A stretch of 64,000 nucleotides of DNA from Dendronephthya gigantea (GCF_004324835.1 NW_021163190.1:191242-255241), one strand, 5' to 3'; positions 1-52,211 are shown, counted from the stretch's first letter. Made by a program: numbers and translations. Notes: a model not told the origin generated them from the sequence alone.

Positions 1-1028
1 ATATAGAAGGAAAACACGAAGCGGTTAACAACGAAGTAAAAGGATTGAAAACAGCTTTGGTCAGAGCTTTTCATGAAATGAAGGACGTTCTTATCACGAT
101 GGAGGGCAAGATAGAAGAAAACACAAGAAAAGTAAGAAATAGACCAAGTGGTGATAAGGAAAATATAATTGTTGCTGGAGGTTTTTGGATTAACTCTGTA
201 AAGATGTTTAACTGGCGTTAAAGAACATGGTCGCCATTACAATCAATGCGAAAGAATTGTTGGGGAGCGACTTCATTTATTTATAACAATCATATGACTA
301 TAGCTGGGGGTTGGTGTGATTGGTATGACATTGTTGATGATATGATTAGAATGAATATTGACCCAAACCCTGATCTCTCAACACACTGGAGTGGCTGTCC
401 TGTTAAACTACCTGATAAGTTGACATGCCACAGCAGTGTGCTGTATAATGACCAGCTGATAGTCTCTGGAGGTCGTAATGGAAATGGTTCATCTGACTTG
501 ATCAGAGCAGTCCAGCTTGTTCCTCCCTATACTGTGAAGACCTTATCAAGAATGCCAGAACCAAGACAATGTCACAGCATGGAAATATTTGATGATAATT
601 TGTTGATAGTTGGTGGAAGTACAACTGGCTATACTGAAGACAACCTCAGCAGTGTTGTACTGTACGATATAAAGAAGAATGAGCTGAAACAGTTCTCACC
701 ACTGCCGTATGAAGTGAGTGATATGGCAACTGTGAGATGGGGAGACAACATTGTTGTTATTGGTGGCGTTGACAAACATTGGCAGCCATTAGATACAGTT
801 ATCATTTACAATGTCAAGACAGAACAAAGTCACATGCTGCCATCAATGAGATGTAAGAGGGGTGGATGTACTGCAGTTGTTATTGAAAACAACATTGTAG
901 TCCTGGGAGGGAGGGGTGAGCATTTAGTGTTAAATTCAGTTGAAGGTTTCAACTTTGAAAGGTATTCTTGGGAAGAACTTCCAGAAATGTCTAAAGCAAG
1001 AATGTGGCACACTGCTGTTGTTGTGTGA
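1..1028 (+). pseudogene. RING-zfTRAF-coiled-coil-Kelch gene, copy 1 (5' end outside window); in-frame TAA at 219-221 replaces the conserved CAA (NWRQRTW in all other copies)
   Basis: Same frame as other copies from position 3 (..EGKHEAVNNEVKGLKTALV..IIVAGG..). Nonsense codon TAA at 219-221. Downstream ORF 246..1028 encodes Kelch blades ending TAVVV*. Confidence 0.7.
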
Positions 1029-1489
1029 ACAATATGTAAAGTATTAAGTGAAAACTCCTAACATATTATGAACAATTGAAATGAACTATAAGATTTTCAC
1101 AAAGTTATAGAAATAGATTGTAGCATTCTAAGTTGATTGTCAGACATATACTGATTTGTATTTTTATGTTTGAATTTAAATTGTGTCAGTTCTTAGAATT
1201 ATATATTAAAGAACAATAACAAATCTATGAAATAAATTTTTTCATTGAGGAAGGTTTAAAATGAAACATCAAATAAAACATTTGAAATAATATTTTCTGC
1301 ACCCCCTCCACATAGGTTTTTCACCCCCTTCCTCCCACAGGTTTTTTCACACCCCTCCTACCACCTAGGTTTTTTTAGCTATAACCCCACACTCCCACCT
1401 AGGTTTTTTCAGCCACAACCTGACCCCTCCCCACCTGGGTTCTTCTGCCCCAGCCCCCAGACCAAGAATCCTAACTGAGCCTCTGGCTC

Positions 1490-3225
1490 CATATTAAGCC
1501 CAGACAAATAAGTCGGCCATTTACTATACAACTAGTTACGTAACTTACTATATTATGGGAAAGGAAGAAAACTCTCGCCTCATTTTTCAACATGTTGACA
1601 AATTAAAACACAAATTACTATAGTAAAACGGCACGTCGGCTGCTAAATGCCTTCCGTAGGTTTAAGTTGAATAATCAAACTATACTTTCATAGTAAAAAT
1701 AGTGCTGAATTCAAAGGAAAGCCCTGGAAAAACCAGTGAGCTCCACATATATCTGGAGTAAGAACTTAAGACTTCCGTGAGGCCAAAAAGTGAAGCCAAA
1801 GATGGCGGATATTGAGGCGCTATAGTACGTCAGTTTCAGTCCTCCTACTGTGCACGGTCAAATAAATTCGTATTTTTCAACTTTAGTTTTTTCCTATTTT
1901 TGAGTAAAAAATGAGCGGAATTTCAATGATAGGTATAATACAAATGCTTTGTATTGAGATATTTTTATATTTCAATTAAATTAACAAAGAAATAAGCGAT
2001 ATCTTACACGGAAAGCTAAGGAGTGACGGATTGTTGATGTTTTCGGCTTTTCGCAAATCACAACATTTACTCGCAGAATATGCTTCCCAAAAACATAAAT
2101 AAAACTTTTCTAAGTTTAATTCATTTATATAAGGCTTTCATCCATGTAAAAAATTAATAGGAAAGAAAATTATGCCGAAAAACGTACGAGTTTAAAATAA
2201 TACTAATATATGATTATGAAATTTATAAACAAGAGTCAAGACTCATATTAAATGCAGGTATAAAAGAAACCTTAAAAAGAGCCCTATGCTAGGAAAGCTG
2301 GCCAAAAAATAAAGGAAAACTAGTGTTAAGGCGTTTCAAAACCAAAAGCGAAACCAGAAACTCAAAACATAAGGTGGAAATATATGAAAATAACTCAAAA
2401 TTAAACAAATCTGAAATGCGTATTTGAATTTATGGCGAAAAATACATATTTACTCACACGTACAGTCGGAAAATGCGGCACCTACATCGGGTAGATGCAG
2501 AGAAACAGATTCCCAGTAAAATTAATCTATTTTTTCCATTCTTGTGCTCTCAAAATGATGAAAAACACGAAAATTTGAGGGTTTCGGGAACCGTCACTCC
2601 CGGTCAAAAACAATGAGAAATATTTGGCCGCGCGAGTAAGGGGACTGAAACTGACGTACTATAGCGCTTCAGTGTCCGCCATCTTTGGCTTCACTTTTTG
2701 CACCCAAAGTTCTTACTCCAGATATATGTGGAGCTCACTGGGAAAAACGTACACAAACTTTGTAAATTTGACGAAATTTTCGTGAATACATGCGGGATGT
2801 AAGTACGTACCCAAATCGGCGACGGCAGAAGAATCTGATTGGTCGAGAAACGTAAACAAAATATGATCAACCAATCTGATTGGTCGTGAAAGGTAAACAA
2901 AGTATGAACGACCAATCAGATTCTTCTGCCACTGCCAGCCACCATTTTGGGTACGTACTTACATCCCGCACGAAAATTTCGTCAAATTTACAAAGTTTGT
3001 GTACGTTTTTCCAGCGCTTTGCTTTGAATTCAGCACTATTTTCATTATGAAAGTATAGTTTGATAATTCAACTTAAACCTACGGTAGGCATTTAGCAGCC
3101 GACGTGCCGTTTTACTATAGTAATTTGTGTTTTAATTTGTGAATATGTTGAAAAATGAGGCGAAAGTTTCCATCCTTCCCAATAATATAGTAAGTTACGT
3201 CGTAGATTTGTCTGGGCTTCCTATG
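1490..3225. mobile_element. ~1.7-kb foldback-like element with ~360-bp terminal inverted repeats and a nested internal palindrome (2750-3010); TSD CTGGCTC (7-8 bp)
   Basis: Left end CATATTAAGCCCAGACAAAT matches reverse complement of right end CATAGGAAGCCCAGACAAAT. 1497-1860 pairs with 2641-3235. CTGGCTC at 1483-1489 and 3226-3232, but only once (ctgcctc) in uninterrupted paralogous spacers. No ORF. Confidence 0.7.
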
Positions 3226-4189
3226 CTGGCTCAAGAAATAGCTCAGTTACCTATTTGAAATATCAGCCTGTCTGTAAATGATGTCTGTGTCTGTCAGACT
3301 GCCACAGACGAAGTCATATTTTAAAATTTATCAATTAACAAGATTTGGAGAGATAGTTTTACTCTTTATTAAAACAGAACCCTGATTAACTAATATAAAT
3401 TGGTTTGTCAACTAAAATAAAATTCTTGTTTCAAGTTTGCTCACAGATTGTTTTGTAATTTCACGTATTCCATCGCGTCCTTGAAGGCTTTTAGTACAAG
3501 ATTTACATTATCTTTTGTACTGTTCAACCCCATCAGACCATCACGCCATATCTGAAAAATTTCACCACAAAAAGTAAGGTTTTTCACAGAAAAAAATTTA
3601 CGATTATGGAGCGAATATCTGCGAATATGAAAAAGAAAATTGTGAATATGGATACCTTTCCAGCAGATCTTCCAAGACCACCTAAAATATCCATTTTATA
3701 TCTGAAAAAGAAATTGATTATTCAATTTTAACACTCTCCCTCTTTACTGGACCTCTATGAATCACCCCCCTGCAAGTATTAAAAATGCAGTTGTTAGCAG
3801 GGGGTAGTCTTCCCGAAATTTATCACTCAGCAGGTACCAAAAATGGAAGGAATTGCCCCCCTGCCCCTATTAAAAATGGGGCAGTTGGCAGGGGGGTGAT
3901 TGCCTTCTTTACGGGTACTTTCTGAGTGACGGAACCACTCATCCAAAAAACTATGGAGTTGTTCTTCTGATAGGTATTCTGTGCCTACACTTTCTTTTAT
4001 TTTTATTGTATTTTTATCTTTACTTGAAAGCACGACATGAAATTACGATTTAGACCTAACCCGGGGGATGACGGGAGTCAATGACCAAATTCATTACTCA
4101 TTCTTTTTCGAGAAATGCATTATAGTTTAAAATTTAGTTTAGCCAAATTCATATTAGAGGCGGGAAACTCGTCTTACAAGGTCAAGGAA

Positions 4190-4440
4190 AACAGGAAACT
4201 CGTCTTACAGGGGAAACTCCTCTTGGAAACTCATCTTAGACGGGAAACTCGTCTGATGTGAATCAGGCCACAGACGGGTTTCTCGTCAGAATTTTCCCGC
4301 CTAACTTTCCCGTCCAAACAAACGGTTAATTTGAACGGGAATCCCTTCTGGACGAGAAACTCGTCTTAAATTCGCATTTAGACGGATAAATCAGACGAGT
4401 TTCTGAAATATCAACACGGTCAAGGACGGAACAAGGGTAA
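4190..4440. repeat. MITE-like foldback module rich in GGGAAACTCGTCT / AGACGAGTTTC inverted subrepeats; present in most array units
   Basis: gaggcgggaaactcgtcttac...gacgggtttctcgtcagaattttcccgcctaa. Copies at 10250-10500, 16190-16440, 21100-21350, 31480-31735 and 47750-47990. Confidence 0.7.
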
Positions 4441-4916
4441 AGCCCGCCGCACAAGAGAGCTATCAGCTGAACTAACGACCTCGCGAGGCATTTAACTCAG
4501 CCTGAAAACTATCCGCACACGATAGAAACTTGCCTCTCGAGGCGAATTCCTCACGAGAAACTATCCGCACACGAGAGTAACTTGCTGAGCTAACAGCCTC
4601 GGGAGGTCTTTACCTCAGCTACCAGCTCTAGTGTGAGGCGCGCTTAACTGAGAAAATAAACAAAATTATTATCGTAATACTCACGATACCTTTTTAGCAT
4701 TACCCGACCCATCACACGTGTAAATTTTATATCCATTCCAAGTCATATTAAGACGGGTTTTTACAATCAACTTTCATGTCTAAGATGAATTTCCCGTGCC
4801 TAATATGAATCTGGTTGTTAATGTGAGAGAGATGATACCTTCGGCTTCTCCGCTTCCTTGAATATACAATCCATTGTTATATGGTTTGTTGTTGTTTGAA
4901 TAAGAACGTATTTTTC

Positions 4917-5346
4917 GTCAAATCTTCGCAGCAAATGGTGTCATGACAGAGCTCTCTGGTTTGCAAATTATGTCGACACCATTGTGTGTACGAGAACCTC
5001 TGTATAATGATAAATTCACGTTAATTTAATTGTTTTGTAAGATTATAAGAATATTATCGATTCGCTGTGTTGTTACAAGGTTACATCTGGTCTTACCTTG
5101 GTGTTCCGAAATCACCACAACCCTGACTGTCACATTCACGGATTGAATTTCTACCATTTGAGCTGCAAAGCTGACCAAGTTTAAAACATTCAACCGCATT
5201 ATCTAGAAAAATAAATACAGAAAAACACGATGAAGAATAACAAAGTGATACTTGAGAATTCTATGAACAAAGATATATATCACAATATGTATTCCAGTAC
5301 CTGCAAAGACTAGGAATATAACAACGATCTTAACAACTCCAAACAT
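4917..5346 (-). CDS. Candidate 3-exon gene for a ~78-aa signal-peptide, cysteine-containing peptide (exons 5346-5301, 5202-5097, 4998-4917), divergent from the downstream Kelch gene
   Basis: Minus-strand ATG at 5346. Exon 1 MFGVVKIVVIFLVFAG, donor CAG|gtactg. Acceptor tttttctag| then DNAVECFKLGQLCSSNGRNSIRECDSQGCGDFGTP, donor AAG|gtaaga. Acceptor ttatacag| then RGSRTHNGVDIICKPESSVMTPFAAKI*. Splice sites conserved in copies at 16932-17360 and 21850-22278; other copies truncated or frameshifted. The protein is an inferred conceptual splice. Confidence 0.4.
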
Positions 5347-5637: not shown

Positions 5638-6605
5638 TGACTTAGACAGAGTAAAATACTAAAGTAGGTCACATCTGGGTGCATTGCAAGCTAATGGGTT
5701 AACAAGAGACACTGACAAATAGTTTTGTTAACTCGTTAACTGACAGTATTCTTCCACTGATGAGTAAAATCATCTGACATTAGACAGAGTAAAATACTAA
5801 AGTAGGTCACATCTGGGTGCATTGCAAGCTAATGGGTTAACAAGAGACACTGACAGATAGTTTTGTTAACTTATTAACTGACAGTACTCTTCCACTGATG
5901 AGTAAAATCATCTGACATTAGACAGAGTAAAATACTAAAGTCGGTCACATCTGGGTGCATTGCAAGCTAATGGGTTAACAAGAGACACTGACAGATAGTT
6001 TTGTTAACTTATTAACTGACAGTATTCTTCCACTGATGAGTAAAATCATCTGACATTAGACAGAGTAAAATACTAAAGTAGGTCACATCTGGGTGAATTG
6101 CAAGCTAATGGGTTAACAAGAGACACTGACAGATAGTTTTGTTAACTTATTAACTGACAGAACTCTTCCACTGATGAGTAAAATCATCTGACATTAGACA
6201 TAGTAAAATTAAGTAGGTCACATCTGGGTGCATTGCAAGCTAATGGGTTAACAAGAGACACTGACAGATAGTTTTGTTAACTTGTTAACTGACAGTACTT
6301 TTCCACTGGTGAGTAAAATCGTCTGACATTAGACAGAGTAAAATACTAAAGTAGGTCACATCTGGGTGCATTGCAAGCTAATGGGTTAACAAGAGACACT
6401 AACAGATAGTTTTGTTAACTTATTAACTGACAGTACTCTTCCACTGATGAGTAAAATCATGTGACATTAGACAGAGTAAAATACTAAAGTAGGTCACATC
6501 TGGGTGCATTGCAAGCTAATGGGTTAACAAGAGACATTGACAGATAGTTTTGTTAACTTATTAACTGACAGTACTCTTCCACTGATGAGTAAAATCATCT
6601 GACAC
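5638..6605. repeat. 138-bp satellite, ~7 tandem units, in the divergent promoter region upstream of the gene at 6996
   Basis: Period measured: GACATTAGACAG recurs at 5776, 5914, 6052. Unit: gacattagacagagtaaaatactaaagtaggtcacatctgggtgcattgcaagctaatgggttaacaagagacactgacagatagttttgttaacttattaactgacagtactcttccactgatgagtaaaatcatct. Confidence 0.9.
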
Positions 6606-6995: not shown

Positions 6996-8618
6996 ATGGC
7001 TTCATATATACAAGGCTACGATAAAGAAAGGTTTGTCGACAAAATCAATCAAAATTTTCATTGCCAGATTTGCTTCAACGTCTTGAAAGAGCCGGTTATG
7101 TGTTCGAGAAACCAGCATTCTTTTTGCCGTTGTTGTATTACGAAACATCTGGAAAATTCTCAAACATGTCCAACGTGTGCTGATGAACTGACCGTAGAGA
7201 CTTTGATCGAACCACCGCGAATGGTTAAAGATTTTTTGAAAGAATCAAAAATTCGTTGCGTTTACATCGACAGAGGTTGTCAAGAAGTTGTAGAATTACA
7301 GCATCTTGACCGCCATGAAGATACATGTGGATATACACCAGCCGTTTGTACAAACCAAGGCTGTGGTTTAATTGTCAACAAGCGTGATCTTATTCACCAT
7401 GAAAGTGAAGTCTGTGAATTCCGAAAGTTGAAGTGTCACTCGTGCGGAGAAATAACGAAAACTTTGGCAGATATGGAGGAAAGAATGGCGAATATCGAGA
7501 AAAATAATGTAACAATTGAAACTAAAATAACAAATTTAGAGAAAAATATGGCGAGAAATACAACAGTCGCAGTCGCAGATTTAAAAGCAGATATGGAAGG
7601 AAAACACGAAGCGGTTAACAACGAAGTCAAAGGATTGAAAACAGCTTTGGTCAGAGCTTTTGATGAAATTAAGGACGTTCTTATCACGATGGAGGGCAAG
7701 ATAGAAGAAAACACAAGAAAAGTAAGAAATAGACCAAGTGGTGATAAGGAAAATATTATTGTTGCTGGAGGTTTTTTGACTAATTCTGTAGAGATGTTTA
7801 ACTGGCGTCAAAGAACATGGTCGCCATTACAATCAATGCCAAAGGATCGTTGGGGAGCGACTTCATTTATTTATAACAATCATATGACTATAGCTGGGGG
7901 TAGCTGTGCTGGGTCTGACATTGTTGATGACATGATTAGAATGAATATTGACCCAAACCCTGATCTCTCAACACAGTGGAGTGACTGTCCCGTTGAACTA
8001 CCTGATAAGTTGCAAAACCACAGCAGTGTGCTGTATAATGATCAGTTGATAGTCTCTGGAGGTGATTGCAAAAATGGTACATCTGACTTGATCGGATCAG
8101 CCCAGCTTGTTCCTCCCTATACTGTGAAGACCTTATCAAGAATGCCAGAACCAAGACAAGGTCACAGCATGGAAATATTTGATGATAATTTGGTGATAGT
8201 TGGTGGATTTTCAAATCGCCAATACAATGACATCCTCAGCAGTGGCATGCTGTACGGTATAAAGAAGAATGATCTGAAACAGTTATCACCACTGCCGTAT
8301 GAAGTGTGTGGTATGGCAACTGTGAGATGGGGAGACAACATTGTTGTTATTGGTGGCACTGATAATCATGGCAAGACATTAGATACAGTTATCATTTACA
8401 ATGTCAAGACAGGACAAAGTCACATGCTGCCATCAATGAGATGTAAGAGGAGGGGATGTACTGCAGTTGTTATTGAAAACAACATTGTAGTCCTGGGAGG
8501 GTGTGGTGAGGAAGGAGAGCTGAACTCAGTTGAAGGTTTCAACTTTGAAAGGTATTCTTGGGAAGAACTTCCAGAAATGTCTGAAGCAAGATGCTTGCAC
8601 AGTGCTGTTGTTGTGTGA
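6996..8618 (+). CDS. RING (C3HC4) - TRAF-type zinc finger - coiled coil - 6-blade Kelch propeller protein, 540 aa, intronless
   Basis: ORF track. RING: CQICFNVLKEPVMCSRNQHSFCRCCITKHLENSQTCPTC. zf-TRAF-like Cys/His spacing: CVYIDRGCQEVVELQHLDRHEDTCGYTPAVCTNQGCGLIVNKRDLIHHESEVCEFRKLKCHSCGE. Six GG-doublet blades: IIVAGG, MTIAGG, LIVSGG, LVIVGG, IVVIGG, IVVLGG. TGA stop followed by AATAAA-like signals. Confidence 0.85.
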   Translation: MASYIQGYDKERFVDKINQNFHCQICFNVLKEPVMCSRNQHSFCRCCITKHLENSQTCPTCADELTVETLIEPPRMVKDFLKESKIRCVYIDRGCQEVVELQHLDRHEDTCGYTPAVCTNQGCGLIVNKRDLIHHESEVCEFRKLKCHSCGEITKTLADMEERMANIEKNNVTIETKITNLEKNMARNTTVAVADLKADMEGKHEAVNNEVKGLKTALVRAFDEIKDVLITMEGKIEENTRKVRNRPSGDKENIIVAGGFLTNSVEMFNWRQRTWSPLQSMPKDRWGATSFIYNNHMTIAGGSCAGSDIVDDMIRMNIDPNPDLSTQWSDCPVELPDKLQNHSSVLYNDQLIVSGGDCKNGTSDLIGSAQLVPPYTVKTLSRMPEPRQGHSMEIFDDNLVIVGGFSNRQYNDILSSGMLYGIKKNDLKQLSPLPYEVCGMATVRWGDNIVVIGGTDNHGKTLDTVIIYNVKTGQSHMLPSMRCKRRGCTAVVIENNIVVLGGCGEEGELNSVEGFNFERYSWEELPEMSEARCLHSAVVV

Positions 8619-8885: not shown

Positions 8886-11627
8886 TTCTGCTCCTCCCAC
8901 CAACTTAGGTTTTTCAACCCCCCCCCCCACCTGTTTTTTACCCCCCCCTACCTAGGTTTTTCACCCCCCTTTCCATCTAGGCTTTTCACACTCACACACA
9001 CCCTCGCACCTACTTTTTTTAGCCATAACCCCAACCCTCCCCACCTAGGTTCTTCTGCCCTGGTCCCCTAGACCAAGAATCCTAACTGAGCCTCTGCCTG
9101 AAGAAATAGCTCAGTTACCTATTTTAAATATCAGCCTGTCTGTAAATGATGTCTGTGTCTGTCAGACTGCCACAGACAGTCATATTTTAAAATTTAACAA
9201 TTAACAAGATTTGGAGAGACAGTTTTACTCTTTACTAAAACAGAACCCAGAAAATTCTTGTTTCAAGTTTGCTCACAGATTGTTTTGTAATTTGACGTTT
9301 TCCATCGCGTCCTTGAAGGCTTTTAGTACAAGATTTACATTATCTTTTGTACTGTTCAACCCCATCAGAGACCAACACGCCATGTCTGAAAAATTTCATG
9401 ACAAAAAGTAAGGTTTTTCAAAGGGGAAAAAATTTACGATCATGAAGCGAATATCTGCGAATATGGAGAAGAAAATTGTGAATATGGGTACCTTTCCAGC
9501 AGATCTTCCAAGACCGCCTAAAATATCCATTTTAGATCTGAAAAAGAAATTGATTATTCAATTTTAACACTCTCTCTCTTTACTGGACCTCCATGAATCA
9601 CCCCCCTGCAATGCTAAAAAATGCAACTGTTACCAGGGGGGGATTTTCCCAAGATTCATCACTCAGTACGTAAGTCGGTAAGTACGTAAGTAGTATTACT
9701 GAGCAGGTACAGTAAATGGAAAATACAATGCTTTTGCAATATACAATGATATTTTTGTTGAAATAAAACCATATACGGTAGAAATAACTACAAAACCCTG
9801 CTCCAATTTACCAATGCAACAACTATTATTACAAATAGTGTTTTGGGTTTACGATTAAACCATTCTTATAAAGTTGTAAATGAAAATGTTGTGTTATTCC
9901 TGAGTAAGGAATTTCCTGCGATTTTCTCAACACTGAACCTTCATCAGCGAACCCTGAAGACTTCAAAAGGGTGAAATAAAATATTTGCACTAAAACCTAT
10001 CAAAAATGAATGAAGTGAATTACTCTAGTGCAATACACGGGTCTACGCGGTTGTTCTCAAGTCATGCAACGATGAACCTTCCATATTTCATTTTAAAATT
10101 TATGGCTTTATTGTTGAAGAAAATGAAAGCGAAAAAGAGAAATTGTTTACAAGTAAAATAGTCAGATTGTCTTTTAAATTGTTGTGGAAAACTCATTTTG
10201 TTTCGAGAAATGCATTATAGTTTCAAATTTAGTTTAGCCGAATTCATATTAGAGGCGGGAAACTCGTCTTACAAGGTCAAGGAAAACAGAAAACTTGTCT
10301 TACAGGGGAAACTCCTCTTGGAAACTCATCTTAGACGGGAAACTCGTGTGATGTGAATCAGGCCACAGACGGGTTTCTCGTCAGAATTTTCCCGCCTAAC
10401 TTTCCTGTCTAAAGAAACGGTTAATTTGAACGGGAATCCCTTCTGGACGAGAAACTCGTCTTAAATTCGCATTTAGACGGATAAATCAGACGAGTTTCTG
10501 AAATATCAACACGGTCAAGGACGGAACAAGGGTAAAGCCCGCCGCACAAGAGAGCTATCAGCTGAACTAACGACCTCGCGAGGCAGTTAACTCAGCCTGA
10601 AAACTATCCGCACACGATAGAAACTTGCCTCTCGAGGCGAATTCCTCACGAAAAACTATCCGCACACGAGAGTAACTTGCTGAGCTAACAGCCTCGCGAG
10701 GTCTTTACCTCAGCTACCAGCTCTCGTGTGAGGCGCACTTAACTGAGAAAATTAAACAAAATTATTATCGTAATAATCACGATACCCTTTTTAGCATTAC
10801 CCGACCCATCACACGTGTAAATTTTATATCCACTCCAAGTCATATTAAGACGGGTTTTTACAATCAACTTTCCTGTCTAAGATGAATTTCCCGTGCCTAA
10901 TATGAATTTGGTTATTAATGTGACAGAGATGATACCTTCGGCTTCTCCGCTTCCTTGAATATACAATCCATTGTTATATGGTTTGTTGTTGTTTGAATAA
11001 GAACGTAATTTTCGTCAGATCTTCGCAGCAAATGGTGTCATGACAGAACTCGCTGGTTTGCAAATTATGTCGACATCATTGTGTGTACGAGAGCCTCTGT
11101 ATAATGATAAATTCACGTTAATTTAATTGTTTTGTAAGATTATAAGAATATTATCGATTCGCTGTGTTGTTACAAGGTTACATCTGGTCTTACCTTGGTG
11201 TTGCGAAATCACCACAACCCTGACTGTCACATTCACGGAATAAATTTCTACCATTTGAGCTGCAAAGCTGACCAAGTTTAAAACATTCAACCGCATTATC
11301 TAGAAAAATAAATACAGAAAAATGAGAATAACGAAGTGATACTTGAGAACTCTATGAACAAAGATATATATCACAATATGTATTCCAGTACCTGCAAAGA
11401 CTAGAATTTTTATTATTTCTGGTTTCGAGCATTTGAATCGGTGTTAAAGCATTTAGCTAACACGTGTTTTTTTCCTAAGCCATTGTTTGGATCACTGACA
11501 TGCTTGTACAGGAACATCATGATCTGAGTCAATAATAATGTGGTCACACTCATCGGTCACATGCAGAATGTCTTCATTCACGTGATCAGTTATATTAGTA
11601 ATTTCGTGTGGTATATCGTAAGGAAAG

Positions 11628-11731
11628 CTGAAGTCAGTTGAAGGTTTCAACTTTGAAAGGTATTCTTGGGAAGAACTTCCGGAAATGTCTGAAGCAAGAT
11701 GGTGGCACACTGCTGTTGTTGTGTGAACAAT
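11628..11731 (+). pseudogene. Orphan 3' fragment of a Kelch gene copy (KSVEGFNFERYSWEELPEMSEARWWHTAVVV*) with its 3'UTR, interrupted by a GC-rich insertion
   Basis: Matches the last ~100 nt of the family CDS. The 3'UTR acaatatg is split by a ~137-bp GC-rich insert (11741-11877) flanked by ATATG on both sides. Confidence 0.6.
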
Positions 11732-13210
11732 ATGCAAGGACCGCGGAGACGGGGGGCTGGGGGGGGGCTTTAGCCCCCGCACATCTTGTTAAGTTTCTCT
11801 TAAAGTGCAGGAACACAGTTTTCTGAGCTGTTTTTTTTATGATTTAGCCCCCCACCTTCTAATGCGCTCCGCAGGCCCTGATATGTAAGGTAAAACTCCT
11901 AACATATTATGAACAATTGAAATGAACTATAAGATTTTCACAAAGTTATGGAAATAGATTGTAGCATGCTAAATTGATTGTCAAACATATACTGATTTAT
12001 ATTTTTGTGATTGAATTTAAATTGAGTCAGTTCTTAGAACAATAATAAGTCTTTGAAATAGATATTTTCATTGAGGAAGGTTTAAAATGAAACACGAAAT
12101 AAAACATTTGAAATAAGCTTTCTGTACCCCCTGCACCTAGGGTTTTTCACCCCCCCTCCCACATAGGTTTTTCAGCCACAACCCCACCCCTCCCCAGTTG
12201 GGTTCTTCTGCCCCAGACCAAGAATCCTAACTGAGCTTCTCCCTGAAGAAATAGCTCAGTTACCTATTTTAAATATCAGACTGTCTGTAAATATTTTGTA
12301 AATAGATTTTATTTGTAAATAGATGGTGTGTGCCTAAATCCATCATCATCTATACGCGTTTAGAAAAAGTTAGTTAAGACTACCTCGTTTTCAATATTGT
12401 ACAAGTGTTTTATCATTTTTCGATGGTGAGTACTGAGTAGGAGCGAAAAGTGTTATAAGCAGTAGAAATCCCTGTTCGACGCTATATTTTCAAACATATT
12501 TCATTTAAAAAGTATTAGTGTGTGAATATCTTTACATTGAATGGCATTTCCTGTACAAATCAATAAATGTACATATATTCCACTTCATTTGAACACATCG
12601 TGCAGTTTTTCACTTCCAATTCAGTTTGGCTCCATTTTGAAATAAGCATTTCGGGGGGGGGGGGGGGGTGTGAATGCCTCTAGTCACTTGTTAAGCATGC
12701 GCAGCAAACGATGCGCAGTGACGAATCGCTTACGCTTTTTAGTCAGAAGAGAAACATCAGGGTATTAATCTGTGGCCATATGATCTATCTATAAACTATT
12801 TATTACGACTGATTTTTCTTAGTATAAAGTATCATTTTCTTCGAACTCATTTCCATATAATGAAATAAGAAATTCCTAGCAACATAAACACAAGCAATTG
12901 CAAGTCAACATTGAATAAACAACAGGTACTCAGCTTTTGTCACAAGACAATAATAATAACATAGTTAATTTATACCACAAATTCCTGTCCACAAAAAACT
13001 CTTTAAAAACTTTAAAAGGAAGAGAAGAGATATTTCTCTGCTGTTCTAAACAGATAATTTTGCAGGAAATACATTGAGAAAATACAAACACAGACTTCTT
13101 CAAGAACGAACACTGTATCTATATTCAGTCTATACAGCGAGGTTTATACTACAGAGCGACAAACAACACAAAACTTGCTTTATTATTACGACACAAGAAC
13201 GACGTGAAAT

Positions 13211-16931: not shown

Positions 16932-17360
16932 TCAGATCTTCGCAGCAAATGGTGTCATGACAGATCTCCCTGGTTAGCAAATTATGTCGACACCATTGTG
17001 TGTACGAGAGCCTCTGTATAATGATAAATTCACGTTAATTTAATTGTTTTGTAAGATTATAAGAATATTGTCGATTCGCTGTGTTGTTACAAGGTTACAT
17101 CTGGTCTTACCTTGGTGTTCCGAAATCACCACAACCCTGACTGTCACATTCGCGGATTGAATTTCTACCATTTGAGCTGCAAAGCTGACCAAGTTTAAAA
17201 CATTCAACCGCATTATCTAGAAAAATAAATGCAGAAAAATGCGATGAAGAATAACGAAGTGATACTTGAGAATTCTATGAACAAAGATATATATCACAAT
17301 ATGTATTCCAGTACCTGCAAAGACTAGGAATATAACAACGATCTTAACAACTCCAAACAT
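16932..17360 (-). CDS. Second copy of the candidate small secreted Cys-peptide gene (premature stop after ..VDIIC)
   Basis: Same exon/intron layout as 4917-5346; the C-terminal exon carries TAA where copy 1 has AAA. Confidence 0.35.
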
Positions 17361-17664
17361 CTTTGATCTGCTAAAATTTAATCTTCTAGCTTGAAATGGC
17401 TTTTCATCGATATAATGACCGCACTTATACAGGATGTTTAAAAAACGCAACACTTAATATTCATGAATATTTTGATACGCTATACGATCTTTTGTGATCA
17501 AAACGAAAGTGAATTTTCGAGAGGGTTTCGAGAAAATAAAAACACAGACATCTTCAAGAACGAACACTGTATCTATATTCAGTCTATACAGCGAGGTTTA
17601 TACTACAGAGCGACAAACAACACAGAACTTGCTTTATTATTACGACACAAGAACGACGTGAAAT

Positions 17665-40245: not shown

Positions 40246-40397
40246 ATGGCTTCATATATACAAGGCTACGATGAAGAAAGGTTTGTGAACCAAATCGATC
40301 GAAATTTTCATTGTCAGATTTGCTTCAACGTCTTGAAAGAGCCGGTTATGTGTTCGAGAAACCAGCATTCTTTTTGCCGTTGTTGTATTACGAAACA
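40246..40397 (+). pseudogene. 5' fragment (Met1..CCITKH) of a RING-zfTRAF-CC-Kelch copy, cut off by a transposon insertion
   Basis: MASYIQGYDEERFVNQIDRNFHCQICFNVLKEPVMCSRNQHSFCRCCITKH, then non-homologous GAATAC-rich sequence. The gene resumes at 43943. Confidence 0.8.
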
Positions 40398-43300
40398 CTG
40401 CATGAAAAACCGCGTATTCACAGGTGAATACGTGCGAATATGAGTTCGAATATGGTCCATATTCACACGTATTCACAGATATTCACTGTGAATATCCTCG
40501 GAATATTGGGGGTATTCCGATGTGAATACCTGTGAATAAAACACACCGCGTATTCTGACCTAGAATACCTTCGAATACTCTGTGAATATTTTTCAAGACC
40601 TAGTATTCACACTTCGGCATAGAAAATGTGATTGTACGCATGAATACTGGATAATCAACGAGTTATATTGTGTAAATATTGCAGGAAATGCGTTTATATA
40701 CCACGGAATAGGCAATTAAAGGTTGTTTCAGTTCAATGCCGGTGTCAACTGTTATCCAGCATTTCTTCTCATCACGGTCACAAATTGAAATTGCACTTGA
40801 TTTGTTTAGGCGACAGACAATAAATGTTACCAAACGCACGATGATTTTTATTTGATTAATTTTTTTGCTGCCGCAGGGATGTCGAGTATCGTATATCCTC
40901 AGTCGATGAGCGCTGAGTAGCCTCGTAAGTCGTAAAAAAGCTGTATAAAAAGAGAAATATCCATCAATTTCTTTTATTACCTGTGTAAAAGAAGTTATAT
41001 ATAAAAAAAATACTTTTATTTTTGCTTGGATACGTAAACACATGGGTAGAAAGTTGATGATTCTGTATCGTCAAAAGCATCCGTAATATAAACAGTTCAG
41101 TGTTGGGAAATCGTAGGAAATTTCCTTTGGGAAATTTCCTCTTCGACATGTTAGTGACAATTTTTGCGCCAAGGAATTGCGGCGAAATTGCGAATAAATG
41201 GCGAAATTCGGAGGTCGTATAACAATAACAAATAAATGTCTTTAAATGATTCCTCGCAAAAGTTGTCCAGTTCCCTTTGTTTACAAAACGATAACATGGC
41301 ACAAATGTCAATTGGTTTCAACCAGGGCGCTTATATATAAATGCGTGGTTTCAACAGAAGTTCAAGCTGTTCAACTTTGAATTGTTAAAGATGTTCGCGA
41401 TGCCCCAAAATAATTCTTGTGGCGGCGCTAAAATCAGGTAAGTTATTTAATAATAACAAGAGTTATGTCATACTATAGTCCTGAAACAACACAACACAAC
41501 AACAATAGTGCGAGGCCAACGCTTTTACGGCTGGGCTCATCACTTTTTTTGTTTTTATTAATATAAATAGATTACGATTGTGTTTATTGTAGCTAATTTG
41601 TACACAGCTAACTGTACCTGCTTGTAGATAAATAAATTGTATGATGGTTTTCATCAATCCTACCTCCATCACACACTAATTATAGTAGGTACAAATGTTT
41701 GCCATTTCAAAGCCATACTCAATACAAACAAAATTTAAAAGTTTGCCAATACTGAAAAGGGACATTACTTTCTTACCTACCACAAATATTCAGAAAGCTG
41801 CTGTAATCATAACTTTAACATAACATAACCCTTAGATAGACGTTTCAAGATGCATTGAAATGAGGTGCATTGGTACATTTCATGAGGGTTTTTTATATTT
41901 TAGGCAAAATTTATATATTATAGATATATATTGTTATATAATTGTCACAGAATAGCTAATGATTGATTGCCAAAAGATTGAAATCTTAACAATCAGCTGC
42001 CCAAAGACAGAAATCTTAACAGCTTAGAAATCAAAGCCAGACTGTGTTTTTTAGTTATATATAATACATATTTTTTAACAAAATAATGGCCTATATTTTT
42101 CCTTTTAGCATATATGAATTATATTTAAACTAATATTTACCACAGAATAGCTATTGAACTGGTTGCCAAAAGATAGGAATCTTAACAACCAGCTGCCCAA
42201 AGACAGAAATCTTAACAGCTTAGAAGTTCATGCTAGACTGTGTTTTTAAGTGAAGCCTTTTAACATTGCCCTCATCATAATTTATAACTGAGACTGTTTA
42301 CTGATTTGTACATATACATTCTCCTAGGAATATTATAATTTCATTACACTGCATAAAATCTATGCACAACAATAAAAACAAATGGCCATGCATGCAACAT
42401 CAGCTTTTACCATTATCATTAACCTTTCGGATAATAATCTATTATAGCTTAAGAAAGTTTGCTATGTATTTTGTTCAATAATTGCTTTAAGGTGGTTTTA
42501 ATTGTTTTTAGCCATCAGGGGTTGCAAGATTGAGAAAATTCCCAAAAGAGTTGGCCTTAACTTTGCTAAAGATGAAGAGGATTTTTCACCCAGTGAAAGA
42601 AGTTCCTGATTCATTATCTGCTCACCTATAGTTTTTAATATCTTACCAAGTGAAAAAACATCACTTGCTTTGCTCAACAATTTACTATTAAGTATAATTT
42701 CTGACATACTCCAGGAGCAATGTGTTTCATATAATACTAAAACAACATTGCTTATAAATTAAACAATCAGCTGATGAAAGATTGAAAATCATAACAGCTT
42801 AGTAGAAGTTCATGATAGGCTGTGTTTTTGCTACATATTTTGAACAATTTGTGATGTTCCAATAATATTTTTATAAAATGTGAAATGTTGTAACCCATCA
42901 CATGTACATGTGATCTGTTAAGGACTGTATAAAATTTAAATAATTGACTGAAATCTTAGTATTGCATTTGATCAACCTTGATAAAACACATTAACTGTGG
43001 ATAAACCTACCATTGCAATGTGTATGACTGCTATGCAAATTAACATGGCAACCTAAAGATTATGCATGTTGTTCATATTGATATTTTCCTTAATGGACAG
43101 ACTTGAGGGACAATAAATGCCTAAACATTCGCACAGGCTGCGAACGCATAACCCATTAACCTCTTATCACCAGGTAATTTGTTAATAAAATGTTGAGATT
43201 ACTCCCAACATGGTCATCGGGTATAGTCTATAGACCGGCTATTGAATTCAACTGCACGATATTTAGTCACTCACCGAAGAGGTCCCTTACGCACAAACAG

Positions 43301-43942
43301 TATATGCGTTTTCGGTTTTGAACAATAAAAAATCCTTGAAATACGGTTAATATTCGTTATCATTTTACACGTATTAGCGAACATAAGGTGCTGTAGCAAT
43401 CGCGCCATGCAATCTCATTTCTATTTCGCGCATTTTCTTCATCAGACTTCGTGGGAATCGTAGCATACAAATACTCGCCGGCATGCTCTTTAACTGCGAC
43501 CAGAGTTTCCAGACTTTACCAAGCCCTTGGCATCCTTCACTCTCTTCCCTTATTTGTAAGCGCCAAAAAGATTTCTTACAGCCACAAACGCACGATCTCC
43601 TCGTTCAATGTTTATTAAACTCGAAAGCGCGCTTTTTGGTTTTTGCGCCAAATTATTTATAAAATTCCACTTCAATTTTTCAGCATTCAAAATAAAGTTT
43701 AAAAATGTCAGCTGATGAATTTATTTTGTGGAAACACGGATTAAGTGAGAAGTGAGATATTCCAAGTGTGAATATTGGTCAGAATACGCGGCATATTCAC
43801 GGCGTATTCACACTTAGAATACTGAAGAATACGATGCCGTATTCACACTAATATTCCATGTCGGAATACGCTTGCAATATGTGTTTTATTCACACCCGTA
43901 TTCACATGTGAATACCTTGGAATACGGCGCTTTTCATGCAGT
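40398..43942. mobile_element. ~3.5-kb non-autonomous TIR DNA transposon inserted in the RING-coding part of a Kelch gene copy; TSD GAAACA (6 bp, possibly a degenerate 8 bp)
   Basis: Termini CTGCATGAAAAACCGCGTATTC ... GGCGCTTTTCATGCAGT are inverted. Dense subterminal GAATAC/GTATTC repeats at both ends. Host sequence GAAACA present on both sides (40392-40397 and 43943-43948). Internal ~85-bp repeats near 41940 and 42130. No transposase-like ORF. Confidence 0.75.
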
Positions 43943-45422
43943 GAAACATCTGGAAAATTCTCAAACATGCCCAACGTGTGCTGATGAACTGACCGTAGAG
44001 ACTTTGGCCGAAGCACCGCGAATGGTAAAAGATTTCCTGAATGAATCAAAAATTCGTTGCGTTTACATCGACAAAGGTTGTCAAGAAGTTGTAGAATTAC
44101 AGCATCTTGACCGCCATGAAGATACATGTGGATATACACCAACCGTTTGTACAAACCAAGGCTGTGGTTTAATTGTCAACAAGCGTGATCTTATTCACCA
44201 TGAAAGTGAAGTCTGTGAATTCCGAAAGTTGAAGTGTCACTCGTGCGGAGAAATAACGAAAACTTTGGCAGATATGGAGGAAAGAATGGCGAATATCGAG
44301 AAGAATATCGAGAAGAATAATACAACAGTTGAAATTAAAATAAGAAATTTAGACAGAAAAATAGACAAAAACACGGCAGATATAAAAGCAGATATGGAAG
44401 GAAAACACGAAGCGGTTAACAACGAAGTCAGAGGATTGAAAACAGCTTTGGTCAGAGCTTTTGATGAAATGAAGGACGTTCTTATCACGATGGAGGCCAA
44501 GAAAAAAGAAAACATAGCAAAGGTAATAAATAGACCAAGTGGTGATAAGGAAAATATAATTGTTGCTGGAGGTATAGGAATTAACTCTGTAGAGATGTTT
44601 AACTGGCGTCAAAGAACATGGTCGCCATTACAATCAATGCCAGAGGGTCGTTATGCAGCGACTTCATTTATTTATAACAATCATATGACTATAGCTGGGG
44701 GTAGCTGTCGTGGTTTTTCTGGCATTGTTGATGATATGATTAGAATGAATATTGACCCAAACCCTGATCTCTCAACACACTGGAGTGACTGTCCTGTTAA
44801 ACTACCTGATAAGTTGAATAACCACAGGAGTGTGCTGTATAATGATCAGTTGATAGTCTCTGGAGGTGATAATGAAAATGGTTCATCTGACTTGATCAGT
44901 TCAGTCCAGCTTGTTCCTCCCTATACTGTGAAGACCTTATCAAGAATGCCAGAACCAAGAAAATATTACAGCATGGAAATATTTGATGATAATTTGTTGA
45001 TACTTGGTGGAAGAACAACTGGCAGTGCCAAAGACAGCCTCAGCAGTGTCGTACTGTACGATATAAAGAAGAATGAGCTGAAACAGTTGTCACCACTACC
45101 GTATGAAGTGAGTCACATGGCAACTGTGAGATGGGGAGACAACATCGTTGTTATTGGTGGTGCTGACAAACATGGCAAGTTAATAAATACAGTTATCATG
45201 TACAATTTCAAGACAGAACAAAGTCACATGCTGCCATTAATGATATGTAAGAGAAGTGCATGTACCGCAGTTGTTATTGAAAACAACATTGTAGTCCTGG
45301 GAGGGTGTGGTGAGCAAGGAGAGCTGAAGTCAGTTCAAGGTTTCAACTTTGAAAGGTATTCTTGGGAAGAACTTCCAGAAATGTCTAAAGCAAGATACTG
45401 GCACACTGCTGTTGTTGTGTGA
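43943..45422 (+). pseudogene. 3' portion (LENSQTCPTC...TAVVV*) of the same transposon-disrupted RING-zfTRAF-CC-Kelch copy
   Basis: ORF 43872..45422 becomes homologous to the family exactly at HLENSQ after the duplicated GAAACA. The remainder is a complete zfTRAF-CC-Kelch reading frame. Confidence 0.8.
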
Positions 45423-47552: not shown

Positions 47553-49249
47553 GCTCTAGATAGGTATTCTGTGCCTACACTTTCTTTCATTTTTATTGTA
47601 TTTTTATCTTTACTTGAAAGCACGACATGAAATTACCATTTAGACCTAACCCGGGGGGTGAAGGAGTCAATGACCAAATTCATTACTCATTCTGTTTCGA
47701 GAAATGCATTATAGTTTAAAATTTAGTTTAGCCGAAATCATATTAGAGGCGGGAAACTCGTCTTACAAGGTCAAGGAAAACAGGAAACTCGTCTTACAGG
47801 GGAAACTCCTCTTGGAAACTCATCTTAGACGGGAAACTCGTCTGATGTGAATCAGGCCACAGACGGGTTTCTCGTCAGAATTTTCCCGCCTAACTTTCCC
47901 GTCTAAACAAACGGTTAATTTGAACGGGAATCCCTTCTCGACGAGAAACTCGTCTTAATTTCGCATTTAGACGGATAAATCAGACGAGTTTCTGAAATAT
48001 CAACACGGTCAAGGACGGAACAAGGGTAAAGCCCGCCGCACAAGAGAGCTATAAGCCGAGCTAACGACCTCGCGAGGCAGTTAACTCAGCCTGAAAACTA
48101 TCCGCACACGATAGAAACTTGCCTCTCGAGGCGAATTCCTCACGAAAAACTATCCGCACACGAGAGTAACTTGCTGAGCTAAAACCTCGCGAGGTCTTTA
48201 CCTCTACCAGCTCTCGTGTGAGGCGCGCTTAACTGAGAAAATAAACAAAATTATTATCGTAATAATCACGATACCCTTTTTAGCATTACCCGACCCATCA
48301 CACGTGTAAATTTTATATCCATTCCAAGTCATATTAAGACGGGTTTTTACAATCAACTTTCCTTTCTAAGATGAATTTCCCGTGCCTAATATGAATTTGT
48401 TTCATAATGTGAGAGAGATGATACCTTCGGCTTCTCCGCTTCCTTGAATATACAATCCATTGTTATATGGTTTGTTGTTGTTTGAAAAGAACGTGATTTT
48501 CGTCAGATCTTCGCAGCAAATGGTGTCATGACAGAACTCTCTGGTTTGCAAATTATGCATGTCGACACCATTGTGTGTACGAGAGCCTCTGTATAATGAT
48601 AAATTCACGTTAATTTAATTGTTTTGTAAGATTATAAGAATATTATCGATTCGCTGTGTTGCTACAAGGTTACATCTGGTCTTACCTTGGTGTTCCGAAA
48701 TCACCACAACCCTGACTGTCACATTCACGGATTAAATTTCTACCATTTGAGCTGCAAAGCTGACCAAGTTTAAAACATTCAACCGCATTATCTAGAAAAA
48801 TAAATACAGAAAAATACGATGAAGAATAACGAAGAATGTTTAGCGTTTTCTATGTTGGGAATATATATAATTCCATTTAATCCTTGAGATTAGGTTAGGT
48901 TTAGGGTCAAATTTAGGATTAATTTTAGCCCTATTAAACTATAAACCTAAAACATAATCTTAACCCAATAGACCTTTCTTATAATGACGTCAAACGCGGA
49001 AAGTCTGATGTTACACGAAATTTGATTGGCTCCACAAAACTATCGAGCTAATCAAACTTCATGTAACATCACACTTTCCGCGTTTGACGTCATTATGAAA
49101 AAGGTCTTTTCCTAACATAATCCCAAAGATTAAATTTGCGTATTTAGGAATTAGTGAACATGGAGTTTTATATAAGTTAAAGCTTTCAGAGTCGACTTTA
49201 ATTACTGCAAAATAACAGATCACTGAGTTATATTCATTTCACTAGTACT

Positions 49250-50150: not shown

Positions 50151-50570
50151 AGATTATAAATAACACTAGAGGAGGCATTGGTACGAAAAACACAATGAAC
50201 TCCATATATTAAATATATATATAAAACATCAGTCAAGAAAGGCGGCGCGATTATGGCGGGCAAATTAAGTCCCGGATGCAAGCAGCGCTGATTGGGTAGA
50301 TCAACGCCTCCTTAGCAACCACGTTGTTTATAATTTCTATGCGCGATGCAGCAGAAAGGACGCGTCTTACGCAAACACTTTATAACGAAGAGAGATTTGT
50401 CTTCATAAACTGATCATTTTGGAGAAAATTTCAAAAAAACAAACAAACACAGACATCTTCAAGAACGAACACCATATCTATATTCAAGTCTATACAGCGA
50501 GGTTTATACTACAGAGCGACAAACAACACAGAACTTGCTTTATTATTACGACACAAGAACGACGTGAAAT

Positions 50571-52211
50571 ATGGCTTCATATATACAAGGCTACGATGAA
50601 GAAAGGTTTGTGAACAAAATCGATCGAAATTTTCATTGCCAGATTTGCTTCAACGTTTTGAAAGAGCCGGTTATGTGTTCGAGAAACCAGCATTCTTTTT
50701 GCCGTTGTTGTATTACGAAACATCTGGAAAATTCTCAAACATGCCCAACGGTGCTGATGACTGACCGTAGAGACTTTGACCGAACCTTCACGATGGTAAA
50801 AGATTTTTTAAATGAATCGAAAATTCGTTGCGTTTACATCGACAGAGGTTGTCAAGAAGTTGTAGAATTACAGCATCTTGACCGTCATGAAGATACATGT
50901 GGATATACACCAGCCGTTTGTACAAACCAAGGCTGTGGTTTAATTGTCAACAAGCGTGATCTTATTCACCATGAAAGTGAAGTCTGTGAATTCCGAAAGT
51001 TGAAGTGTCACTCGTGCGGAGAAATAACGAAAACTTTGGCAGAAATGCAGGAAAGAATGGCGAATATCGAGAAGAATATGGTAACAAATAAAACAGTTGA
51101 AACTAAAATAACAAATTTAGAGAAAAATGTTGCCACTGTTGCGAATAATATGGAGAAAAACACGGCAGATATAAAAGCAGATATGGAAGGAAAACACGAA
51201 GCGGTTAACAACGAAGTCAAAGGATTGAAAACAGCTTTGGTCAGAGCTTTTGATGAAATGAAGGACGTTCTTATCACCATGGAGGGCAAAAAAGAAGAAA
51301 ACACAAGAAAACTAATAAATAGACCAAGTGGTGATAAGGAAAATATAATTGTTGCTGGAGGTGGTTGGTCTAACTCTGTGGAGATGTTTAACTGGCGTCA
51401 AAGAACATGGTCGCCATTACAATCAATGCCAAAGGATCGTTCTGGAGCGACTTCATTTATCTATAACAATCATGTGACTATAGCTGGGGGTTGCTGTGAT
51501 GTTTGGTCTGGGATTCTTGATGATATGATTAGAATGAATATTGACCCAAACCCTGATCTCTCAACACACTGGAGTGACTGTCCTGTTAAACTACCTGATA
51601 AGTTGAGATACCACAGCAGTGTGCTGTATAATGATCAGTTGATAGTCTCTGGAGGTGATAATGGAAATGGTTTATCTGACTTGATCAGTTCAGTCCAGCT
51701 TGTTCCTCCCTATACTGTGAAGACCTTATCAAGAATGCCAGAACCAAGACAAGGTCACACCATGGAAATATTTGATGATAATTTGTTGATAGTTGGTGGA
51801 ACTGCAACTGGCGGATGCAAAGACAACCTCAGCAGTGTCGTACTGTTCAATATAAAGAAGAATGAGCTGAAACAGTTGTCACCACTGCCGTATGAAGTGA
51901 GTGATATGGCAACTGTGAGATGGGGAGACAACATTGTTGTTATTGGTGGCGCTGACAAACATGCCAAGCCATTAGATACAGTTATCATTTACAATGTCAA
52001 GACAGAACAAAGTCACATGCTGCCATCAATGAGATGTAAGAGGAGGGGATGTACTGCAGTTGTTATTGAAAACAACATTGTAGTCCCGGGAGGGGATGGT
52101 GAGCGACGAGAGCTGAAGTCAGTTGAAGGTTTCAACTTTGAAAGGTATTCTTGGGAAGAACTTCCAGAAATGTCTGAGGCAAGATGGCTGCACACTGCTG
52201 TTGTTGTGTGA
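50571..52211 (+). CDS. RING-zfTRAF-CC-Kelch paralog, 546 aa; three separate 1-bp deletions (net -3) destroy the end of the RING (CPTCADELTVETLAEPSRM becomes CPTVLMTDRRDFDRTFTM)
   Basis: Alignment against copy at 28680-28750: ccaacgtgtgctgatgaactgacc vs ccaacggtgctgatgactgacc, and cacgaatggtaaaag vs cacgatggtaaaag. The rest of the ORF is intact. Confidence 0.7.
   Translation: MASYIQGYDEERFVNKIDRNFHCQICFNVLKEPVMCSRNQHSFCRCCITKHLENSQTCPTVLMTDRRDFDRTFTMVKDFLNESKIRCVYIDRGCQEVVELQHLDRHEDTCGYTPAVCTNQGCGLIVNKRDLIHHESEVCEFRKLKCHSCGEITKTLAEMQERMANIEKNMVTNKTVETKITNLEKNVATVANNMEKNTADIKADMEGKHEAVNNEVKGLKTALVRAFDEMKDVLITMEGKKEENTRKLINRPSGDKENIIVAGGGWSNSVEMFNWRQRTWSPLQSMPKDRSGATSFIYNNHVTIAGGCCDVWSGILDDMIRMNIDPNPDLSTHWSDCPVKLPDKLRYHSSVLYNDQLIVSGGDNGNGLSDLISSVQLVPPYTVKTLSRMPEPRQGHTMEIFDDNLLIVGGTATGGCKDNLSSVVLFNIKKNELKQLSPLPYEVSDMATVRWGDNIVVIGGADKHAKPLDTVIIYNVKTEQSHMLPSMRCKRRGCTAVVIENNIVVPGGDGERRELKSVEGFNFERYSWEELPEMSEARWLHTAVVV

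Follow-up and report, generated by a model that had tools for sequence, protein, structure and literature searches.

A probable birth-and-death array of TRAF-like RING-Kelch genes in the octocoral Dendronephthya gigantea

Introduction

The TRIM5, TRIM22 and finTRIM genes form lineage-specific tandem arrays in which surface loops are positively selected and pseudogenes are frequent. A different relationship between paralogues is seen in the TRAF family, where TRAF1, a natural member without a RING, modulates its paralogues. The substrate-binding face of the Kelch domain, in KEAP1 as in the KLHL proteins, is built by its B-C and D-A loops. Finally, RNF151 and RNF41 (NRDP1) are small vertebrate proteins that have no Kelch propeller and are not found in large arrays. 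Here, we describe a stretch of 64,000 nucleotides from Dendronephthya gigantea (GCF_004324835.1 NW_021163190.1:191242-255241; the window, below) that carries a tandem array of genes whose proteins join an N-terminal RING and TRAF/Sina-type zinc fingers to a six-bladed Kelch propeller.

An earlier description of the window, made from its sequence and referred to here as the original prediction, proposed birth-and-death dynamics with distinct lesions in four copies. We consider it probable that the locus is a tandem array of TRAF-like RING-Kelch genes, coding for E3 ligases or adaptors, that sheds copies by transposon insertion, deletion and recent lesions. The proposed dynamics are supported by the duplication of whole units, by a decayed, transposon-split copy (c8), by a deletion remnant and by a pseudogene neighbour in another assembly. 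As it was stated, the finding is an ordinary one, namely textbook birth-and-death evolution. The family, more than the lesions, is what seems worth following: with more than 1500 relatives in octocoral-type data, it is a candidate repertoire for recognition or immunity in animals in which few such receptor families have been documented.

A tandem array of RING-Kelch genes

Ten long open reading frames (ORFs) of one RING-Kelch family lie on the plus strand of the window. BLASTN with an intact copy and a MAFFT alignment resolve the family into nine copies (c1 to c9) and one short fragment, all on the plus strand and 91-93% identical in nucleotide sequence (Table 1). The genes are single-exon and follow one another head to tail, in DNA whose G+C content is 36-39% across the window; Rfam and tRNA scans of the window gave no matches. 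The duplicated unit is an entire segment of 4.5-6 kb, in which the spacers are homologous as well as the coding sequence (CDS). The nearest-neighbour copy switches along the length of the gene, and the units therefore exchange segments by recombination. The array stops after c9, and satellites come next.

The protein of c5, our reference copy, has a RING at residues 23-61, TRAF/Sina zinc fingers at about 88-150, helices within 129-232 and six Kelch blades at 253-540. Its Pfam matches are to zf-C3HC4_2 (a C3HC4 RING), Sina_ZnF, zf-TRAF and the Kelch families, with those of the zinc fingers falling below the Pfam curated cut-offs; a match to TRIM_CC is weak (E=0.0046) and likewise below cut-off. 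The Pfam scan of the array protein found no B-box (zf-B_box), MATH, BTB or BACK domain. Residues 5-156 align to the RING-zinc-finger region of TRAF6 (phmmer, PDB 5vo0, E=4e-9), and in a search of PDB sequences the C-terminal half aligns to the Kelch domains of KLHL12, KLHL20 and KEAP1. An AlphaFold2 model of c5, built on a 65-sequence family alignment, places helices at 129-181 and 193-232 and predicts the Kelch domain as a six-bladed propeller with a predicted local distance difference test score (pLDDT) above 90. This propeller superposes on those of KLHL12, KLHL20 and KEAP1 in Foldseek with template modelling (TM) scores of 0.89-0.93 and a root-mean-square deviation of about 2 Å. By its defining domains, the array protein stands outside the TRIM, TRAF and KLHL families.

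A search for homologous proteins gave 1530 sequences at E<=1e-10. Those that carry names all come from the octocoral Paramuricea clavata, at about 70-76% identity (best 76%), and are labelled "RING finger 151-like" or "NRDP1"; these names are automatic annotation and reflect the N-terminal similarity only. An exact look-up of the c5 and c9 proteins in an index of 153 billion genes gave no match, and in the searchable literature we found no description of the RING-TRAF/Sina-Kelch architecture or of RNF151-like expansions in corals.

The segment between the zinc fingers and the propeller is a hot spot of length variation. In-frame indels of 3-21 bp distinguish the intact copies in this coiled-coil segment, and they fall in an A-rich, NIEKN-like repetitive stretch, for example at 7490-7640, 18160-18310 and 51060-51200.

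Hypervariable loops of the Kelch propeller

Among the intact copies, the ratio of nonsynonymous to synonymous change (dN/dS) is 1.18 in the Kelch domain, versus 0.35 in the RING-zinc-finger part. The Kelch dN of 0.093 is about 2.5 times the distance at 4-fold sites (0.037). The Kelch propeller is under diversifying selection, and the variation has a clear structural pattern. If hypervariable columns are those in which the nine copies show at least three residues, 41 of the 117 columns in the B-C and D-A loops qualify, against 7 of 171 elsewhere (P=4e-12), so that these loops hold 41 of the 48 hypervariable columns. In each blade, short hypervariable patches follow the GG doublet and precede strand A, with near-invariant framework between them. 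The same positions are without a defined consensus in the 65-sequence family alignment.

By analogy with KEAP1 and the KLHL family, the B-C and D-A loops would be the part of the molecule that recognises targets, and the coiled coil would serve for oligomerisation. The array proteins are most likely oligomeric RING E3s or adaptors that would recognise fast-changing targets through the propeller face, in the manner of TRIM5-type factors, and the array may have an immune or conflict-type role.

Copies lost to a transposon and to a deletion, with a probable nonsense codon in a third

The clearest case of a lost copy is c8, whose BLASTN match comes in two pieces, 40246-40397 and 43943-45422. Its ORF is split by a DNA transposon that ends in 13-bp inverted repeats without mismatch (CACTGCATGAAAA); the inverted arms, 68-165 bp long, are imperfect and rich in GTGAATAC-type subterminal repeats. 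The element is flanked by a 3-bp target-site duplication, AAA at 40393-40395 and 43944-43946, and interrupts the RING between its ligands C6 and C7, following codon 50. Excision of the insert together with one AAA recreates exactly the uninterrupted sequence of the other copies. The original prediction of a 3.5-kb transposon in the RING of this copy is thus upheld, with a length of 3548 bp. An intron is ruled out by the inverted termini, the target duplication and the uninterrupted other copies; a 5-bp target duplication, AAACA (Transib-like), was also considered and rejected because it would make the two ends asymmetric.

The CACTG termini, the 3-bp target-site duplication and the subterminal repeats in long imperfect inverted arms are all reminiscent of CACTA/EnSpm (CMC) elements, although, unlike these, the insert has no detected transposase, so that the assignment comes from end structure alone. 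Its largest ORF is no longer than 126 aa, the two largest gave no Pfam match, and no transposase remnant was found. We also found no second copy of the element in the window or in the fetched loci of other assemblies. It is best viewed as a putative CACTA-like non-autonomous derivative.

What has happened to c8 since the insertion? We counted private changes at codons where every other copy agrees. There are 18 nonsynonymous and 3 synonymous changes (18N:3S) in c8, versus 42:24 pooled over the intact copies. In total, c8 has 32 private substitutions and zero 1-bp indels, and its ORF is still open once the insert is excised. The copy, split by the element, is certainly dead; its later changes fit neutral drift, and it is the only copy that resembles a long-standing pseudogene. 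A 516-aa ORF at 43872-45422 begins with a TTG within the end of the element and stays open through the rest of c8; were the element to supply a promoter, a product with a truncated RING would be conceivable.

A second loss is recorded by the short fragment, which consists of the final 107 bp of a CDS with its stop (11620-11726). Its 3' flank reaches 11739 and picks up again at 11881-12293, and 215 bp of unrelated DNA (11405-11619) stand in place of the promoter and some 1.5 kb of CDS. The solitary 3' fragment of the original prediction is therefore present, at coordinates slightly different from the 11628-11731 given there, and its sequence marks it as certainly a 5'-deleted dead copy.

The nonsense codon proposed for c1 is likewise confirmed: TAA at 219-221, in Kelch blade 1, stands where 8 of the 8 other copies have CAA. 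The private codon changes of c1 (5N:3S) are no different from those of intact copies, and the nonsense codon is probably real and recent.

Turnover in the array and in related loci

Two signs of birth-and-death evolution, tandem duplication of units and independent lesions with decay (c8, the remnant and c1), are both present. The Kelch loops diverge strongly between paralogues; on the other hand, the spacer blocks of 1.2 kb are 96.5-97.5% identical and nearest neighbours switch within the gene, which points to exchange between units as well. The array would evolve by duplication of units, recombination between them and diversifying selection on the propeller, shedding copies along the way.

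Four loci fetched from other assemblies were used for comparison. In one assembly from the European Nucleotide Archive (ENA; ERZ25073802), three contigs that are 98.8% identical carry a family member in which RING ligand C8 is changed to Tyr (CPTY/CPMY) and the ORF, of 532-534 aa, is intact. A fourth contig encodes a partial product (129 aa) in which C8 is likewise Tyr. The three ORFs differ at only 11-17 codons, too few for a test of purifying selection. On two of these contigs (L003 and L004), the neighbouring gene is a pseudogene with a common 7-bp insertion in the second zinc finger, to which L004 adds a stop and a 1-bp deletion. Since the frameshifted neighbour is shared, turnover with pseudogenes is a property of the family.

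Several points weigh against the interpretation of the locus as a selected, copy-shedding array of E3 or adaptor genes. First, hypervariability was scored on the nine sequences that had also been used in part of the dN/dS estimation; the estimates for the whole domain are free of this circularity. Second, the excess of nonsynonymous change in c8 over the intact copies is only marginal (Fisher P=0.064). Third, the E3 activity and the ligand of the array proteins are suggested by homology alone.

Two patches of single-base indels

The remaining lesions, in c6 and c9, are of a different kind. For c6, the original prediction of multiple indels in the coiled coil was confirmed and can be refined to four 1-bp events: insertions of G at 29038 and of A at 29120, and losses of an A after 29203 and of a C after 29248. 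These sum to zero; the intervening frame contains a TAG (29042-29044) and more stop codons as far as 29249. For c9, three single-base deletions were said to restore the frame and to erase the last Cys pair of the RING. The deletions are indeed there, after 50750, 50759 and 50792, spanning 43 bp, and their net effect of -3 restores the frame. The last Cys pair, on the other hand, is not erased; CPTC becomes CPTV, so that only Cys61 (C8) is lost and C7 is kept, and the shifted frame extends over residues 61-74. The zinc fingers, coiled coil and Kelch domain of c9 are intact.

Further single-base indels, overlooked earlier, lie just upstream of both genes: +T at 28432, +C at 28472 and a 1-bp deletion after 28518 in c6, and +A at 50486 in c9. 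They fall in a conserved element of about 135 bp that directly precedes every ATG of the array and is near-invariant among the copies. A stretch of this element matches loci of another species at about 90% identity, compared with about 81% for the CDS, and the element is probably the core promoter and 5' untranslated region. The same element in the six other copies examined has no 1-bp indels. Within it lies the motif TATCTATATTCAGTC, and the insertions of c6 and c9 are no more than 4 bp apart inside this motif. With these additions, each gene has a single patch of 1-bp indels (Table 1); in both, the rest of the Kelch half and 900 bp of flanking DNA downstream are free of them.

The clustering is difficult to ascribe to chance. 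Three random events would fall within 43 of 1641 bp with P of about 0.002, and four within 211 bp with P of about 0.008. Measured against the neutral 1-bp-indel rate of the array (4 in 6.1 kb), the Poisson probabilities are about 4e-6 and 1e-5, and indels are 13 to 34 times denser in the patches than in the neutral DNA of the array. A neutral baseline for the ratio of private 1-bp indels to private substitutions was obtained by pooling the 1.2-kb spacer blocks and the downstream flanks, and stands at 7:181. The corresponding ratios are 7:14 in the c6 patch (P=8e-5) and 4:3 in the c9 patch (P=2e-4). These values are far above the baseline and therefore point to consensus error or to an indel-specific mutation process, not to ordinary decay or selection.

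The codon changes of the two genes tell of a constrained past. Private changes in c6 (6N:11S) are below the neutral expectation (P=3e-4), and those in c9 (6N:6S) are marginally below the neutral ratio (P=0.04). Both copies were constrained for most of their separate history. The patches are not the product of ordinary or long-standing pseudogene decay, and it is roughly an even choice whether they are very recent inactivating events or consensus errors. A simple survey would score c6 as a pseudogene and c9 as a "RING-dead variant", though the signature is unlike natural decay, a warning for pseudogene counts in arrays of this kind.

The origin of the patches

The alternative that best survives is that the 1-bp indels of c6 and c9 are assembly consensus or polishing errors, in which case both genes would be intact and only c8, the remnant and perhaps c1 would be defective. 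We regard this as a serious possibility, if a tentative one. It would account for the confinement of all 11 events, each of 1 bp, to two patches of 818 and 308 bp with such skewed indel:substitution ratios, and for the contrast with the genuine pseudogene c8, which accumulated its private substitutions with no 1-bp indel at all. The absence of any excess of private nonsynonymous change in c6 and c9, with c6 even below neutral expectation, is in keeping with intact genes, as is the fact that some of the events strike the upstream element, which is conserved between species and has no indel in any of the other six copies examined there. Against this, the window is otherwise very clean: the seven other copies, with about 11 kb of ORF, are without a frameshift. 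The 1.2-kb spacer blocks and 900-bp flanks have at most 2 private 1-bp indels per unit, and Tandem Repeats Finder reports 0% indels in the satellites. Moreover, the patch regions differ by about 3-5% from every other copy in the window, so that short reads should map uniquely, and most of the events lie outside long homopolymers.

Perhaps the patches are instead real scars of error-prone synthesis during recombinational repair or gene conversion within the tandem array. The strong indel bias and the local extent of a few hundred bp would fit such an origin, and the switching of nearest neighbours along the gene indicates that recombination between units does occur. Break-induced replication strongly stimulates frameshifts along the copied tract, as shown in yeast (PMC3039667). 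That documentation is for yeast, and the array bears no direct sign of the mechanism. We looked among the window copies for a recent gene-conversion donor of either patch and found none: no near-identical donor is present in the window, the closest copies differing at 18 of 380 and 20 of 620 positions. On balance, recombination scars seem an unlikely explanation.

A further proposal concerns c9 only. The original prediction suggested that this copy could be a tolerated RING-dead decoy; in full, c9 would be a functional, retained, RING-crippled paralogue that forms heteromers through its coiled coil and acts as a decoy, a dominant negative or a non-degradative binder. RING-less TRAF1 and RING-less TRIM isoforms act as such modulators, and TRAF1 is the best analogue for the idea. 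The 546-aa ORF is open, with zinc fingers, coiled coil and Kelch domain preserved, and the private changes of c9, as given above, are below the neutral ratio. All 65 aligned family members have Cys61, so that its loss would be expected to have consequences, and the C8-to-Tyr locus of the related assembly, with its intact ORF, indicates that loss of a ligand is not at once followed by decay.

It is nevertheless hard to reconcile the decoy with how the frame was restored. Three separate 1-bp deletions require two null intermediates on the way to -3, and a net of -3 has a chance expectation of about 1/3. The c9 patch also strikes the conserved upstream element, and its twin in c6 does not keep the ORF. 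Only 2 of 120 close homologues lack the full RING pattern. The three C8-to-Tyr ORFs could be allelic, and their N:S counts are uninformative. A search with the frame-shifted peptide of c9 and its flanks found no matching protein. Because the c9 deletions belong to a four-indel patch that is mirrored by the ORF-breaking patch of c6, the net -3 is most simply put down to chance; the restored frame is most likely coincidental, and we think a functional decoy very doubtful. The most elaborate version, in which an apparently undescribed octocoral repertoire of TRAF-like RING-Kelch receptor-ligases with a hypervariable propeller face is an invertebrate counterpart to the TRIM5-like restriction or recognition factors and c9 is an expressed heteromeric decoy created by a recombination-associated burst of 1-bp deletions, is the least probable of all.

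Spacers, satellites and the flanking gene

Five spacers contain a 1.2-kb non-coding block (Table 1) that is 96.5-97.5% identical between units, with adjoining 3' flanks at 83-93%. The block has no ORF and was not found in the other-species loci that we fetched. Its similarity may come from local homogenisation by gene conversion. A functional element was considered and dropped: the 4-fold-site distance is 0.037-0.057 (versus an NG86 dS of about 0.07), so the gap between the block and synonymous sites is modest, and the block is not conserved in other species.

Several spacers contain a 138-bp satellite, which is found in either orientation and recurs past the end of the array. Purine-rich GA tandem repeats with periods of 19, 36 and 89 bp lie at 25662-26347 and 35798-35968, and it is because of these repeats that GC skew is strongly positive at 24-28 kb and 34-36 kb. 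Beyond c9 and its satellites, an ORF on the minus strand at 57694-58050 matches residues 7-121 of an alanine-glyoxylate/serine-pyruvate aminotransferase (PDB 4cbs, E=3e-33); this appears to be the first coding exon of a single-copy gene next to the array, or else a fragment of such a gene. Pfam searches of ORFs in the 60-63 kb region gave no match.

Table 1. Features of the RING-Kelch array and of related loci; positions refer to the window unless a contig of assembly ERZ25073802 (L002 to L004) is named
Feature	Position	Strand	Remarks
Copy c1, 3' 1028 bp only	1-1028	+	Truncated by window start; its 5' 600 bp outside window
Copy c2	6996-8618	+	Intact 540-aa ORF; BLASTN, ORF scan
Copy c3	13211-14815	+	Intact 534-aa ORF; BLASTN, ORF scan
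Copy c4	17665-19308	+	Intact 547-aa ORF; BLASTN, ORF scan
Copy c5, reference copy	22585-24207	+	Intact 540-aa ORF; Pfam, PDB sequence matches, AlphaFold2 model, Foldseek
Copy c6	28520-30157	+	ORF broken in coiled coil, Kelch half clean
Copy c7	32842-34467	+	Intact 541-aa ORF; BLASTN, ORF scan
Copy c8, 5' part	40246-40395	+	Codons 1-50, first half of RING
Copy c8, 3' part	43944-45422	+	ORF open once insert excised
Copy c9, final array copy in window	50571-52211	+	Open 546-aa ORF
3' remnant of a further copy	11620-12293	+	CDS end and 3' flank
Kelch halves of intact copies	7750-8615, 13960-14812, 18440-19305, 23340-24204, 33600-34464	+	
Indel patch of c6	28432-29249	+	Seven 1-bp indels in 818 bp
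Indel patch of c9	50486-50793	+	Four 1-bp indels in 308 bp
Conserved element of about 135 bp directly before every ATG, example	17525-17664	+	
Upstream element in other-species loci	L002 9610-9692		
Upstream element in other-species loci	L003 about 7190-7340	-	
Non-autonomous DNA transposon, 3548 bp	40396-43943	.	Inverted termini and target-site duplication
1.2-kb spacer block	4096-5313, 10191-11404, 16109-17327, 21027-22245, 47617-48834		
138-bp satellite	5638-6604, 24765-25197 (inverted), 34932-35225 (inverted), 39722-39863, 56185-56537, 56917-57574		
Tandem-repeat arrays just 3' of c9: 114-bp, 77-bp, 80-bp	53152-53527, 53801-54592, 55373-55931		77-bp repeat, 98% identity
C8-to-Tyr family member	L002 10001-11599, L003 10001-11602, L004 10001-11605		ERZ25073802
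Pseudogene neighbour of C8-to-Tyr gene	L003 5610-7267, L004 3945-5601	-	ERZ25073802

Comparison with known systems

How does the array relate to the systems described at the outset? In its layout and dynamics it is reminiscent of the TRIM5/TRIM22 and finTRIM arrays, with which it has in common a RING, a coiled coil and a C-terminal recognition domain, hypervariable selected loops, tandem organisation and pseudogenes. The likeness of a RING followed by a coiled coil and a variable C-terminal domain is one of layout only. The array proteins, in contrast to the TRIM proteins, have no B-box, carry Kelch repeats in place of a B30.2/SPRY domain and include TRAF/Sina zinc fingers, and their genes are single-exon cnidarian genes.

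The N-terminal part recalls the TRAF family: the RING and zinc fingers resemble those of TRAF6, and after them comes a coiled-coil segment of long helices. A C-terminal MATH/TRAF-C domain is lacking, however, and six Kelch repeats stand in its place. The order of an N-terminal RING and TRAF/Sina-type zinc fingers is also that of RNF151 and RNF41 (NRDP1). At the other end of the protein, the BTB-Kelch proteins KLHL12, KLHL20 and KEAP1 provide the match, with the same six-bladed propeller (TM about 0.9) and a substrate face whose loops are the ones that vary in the array. Unlike those proteins, the members of the array have no BTB or BACK domain; the RING is fused directly to the propeller-bearing chain, and no CUL3 scaffold is implied.

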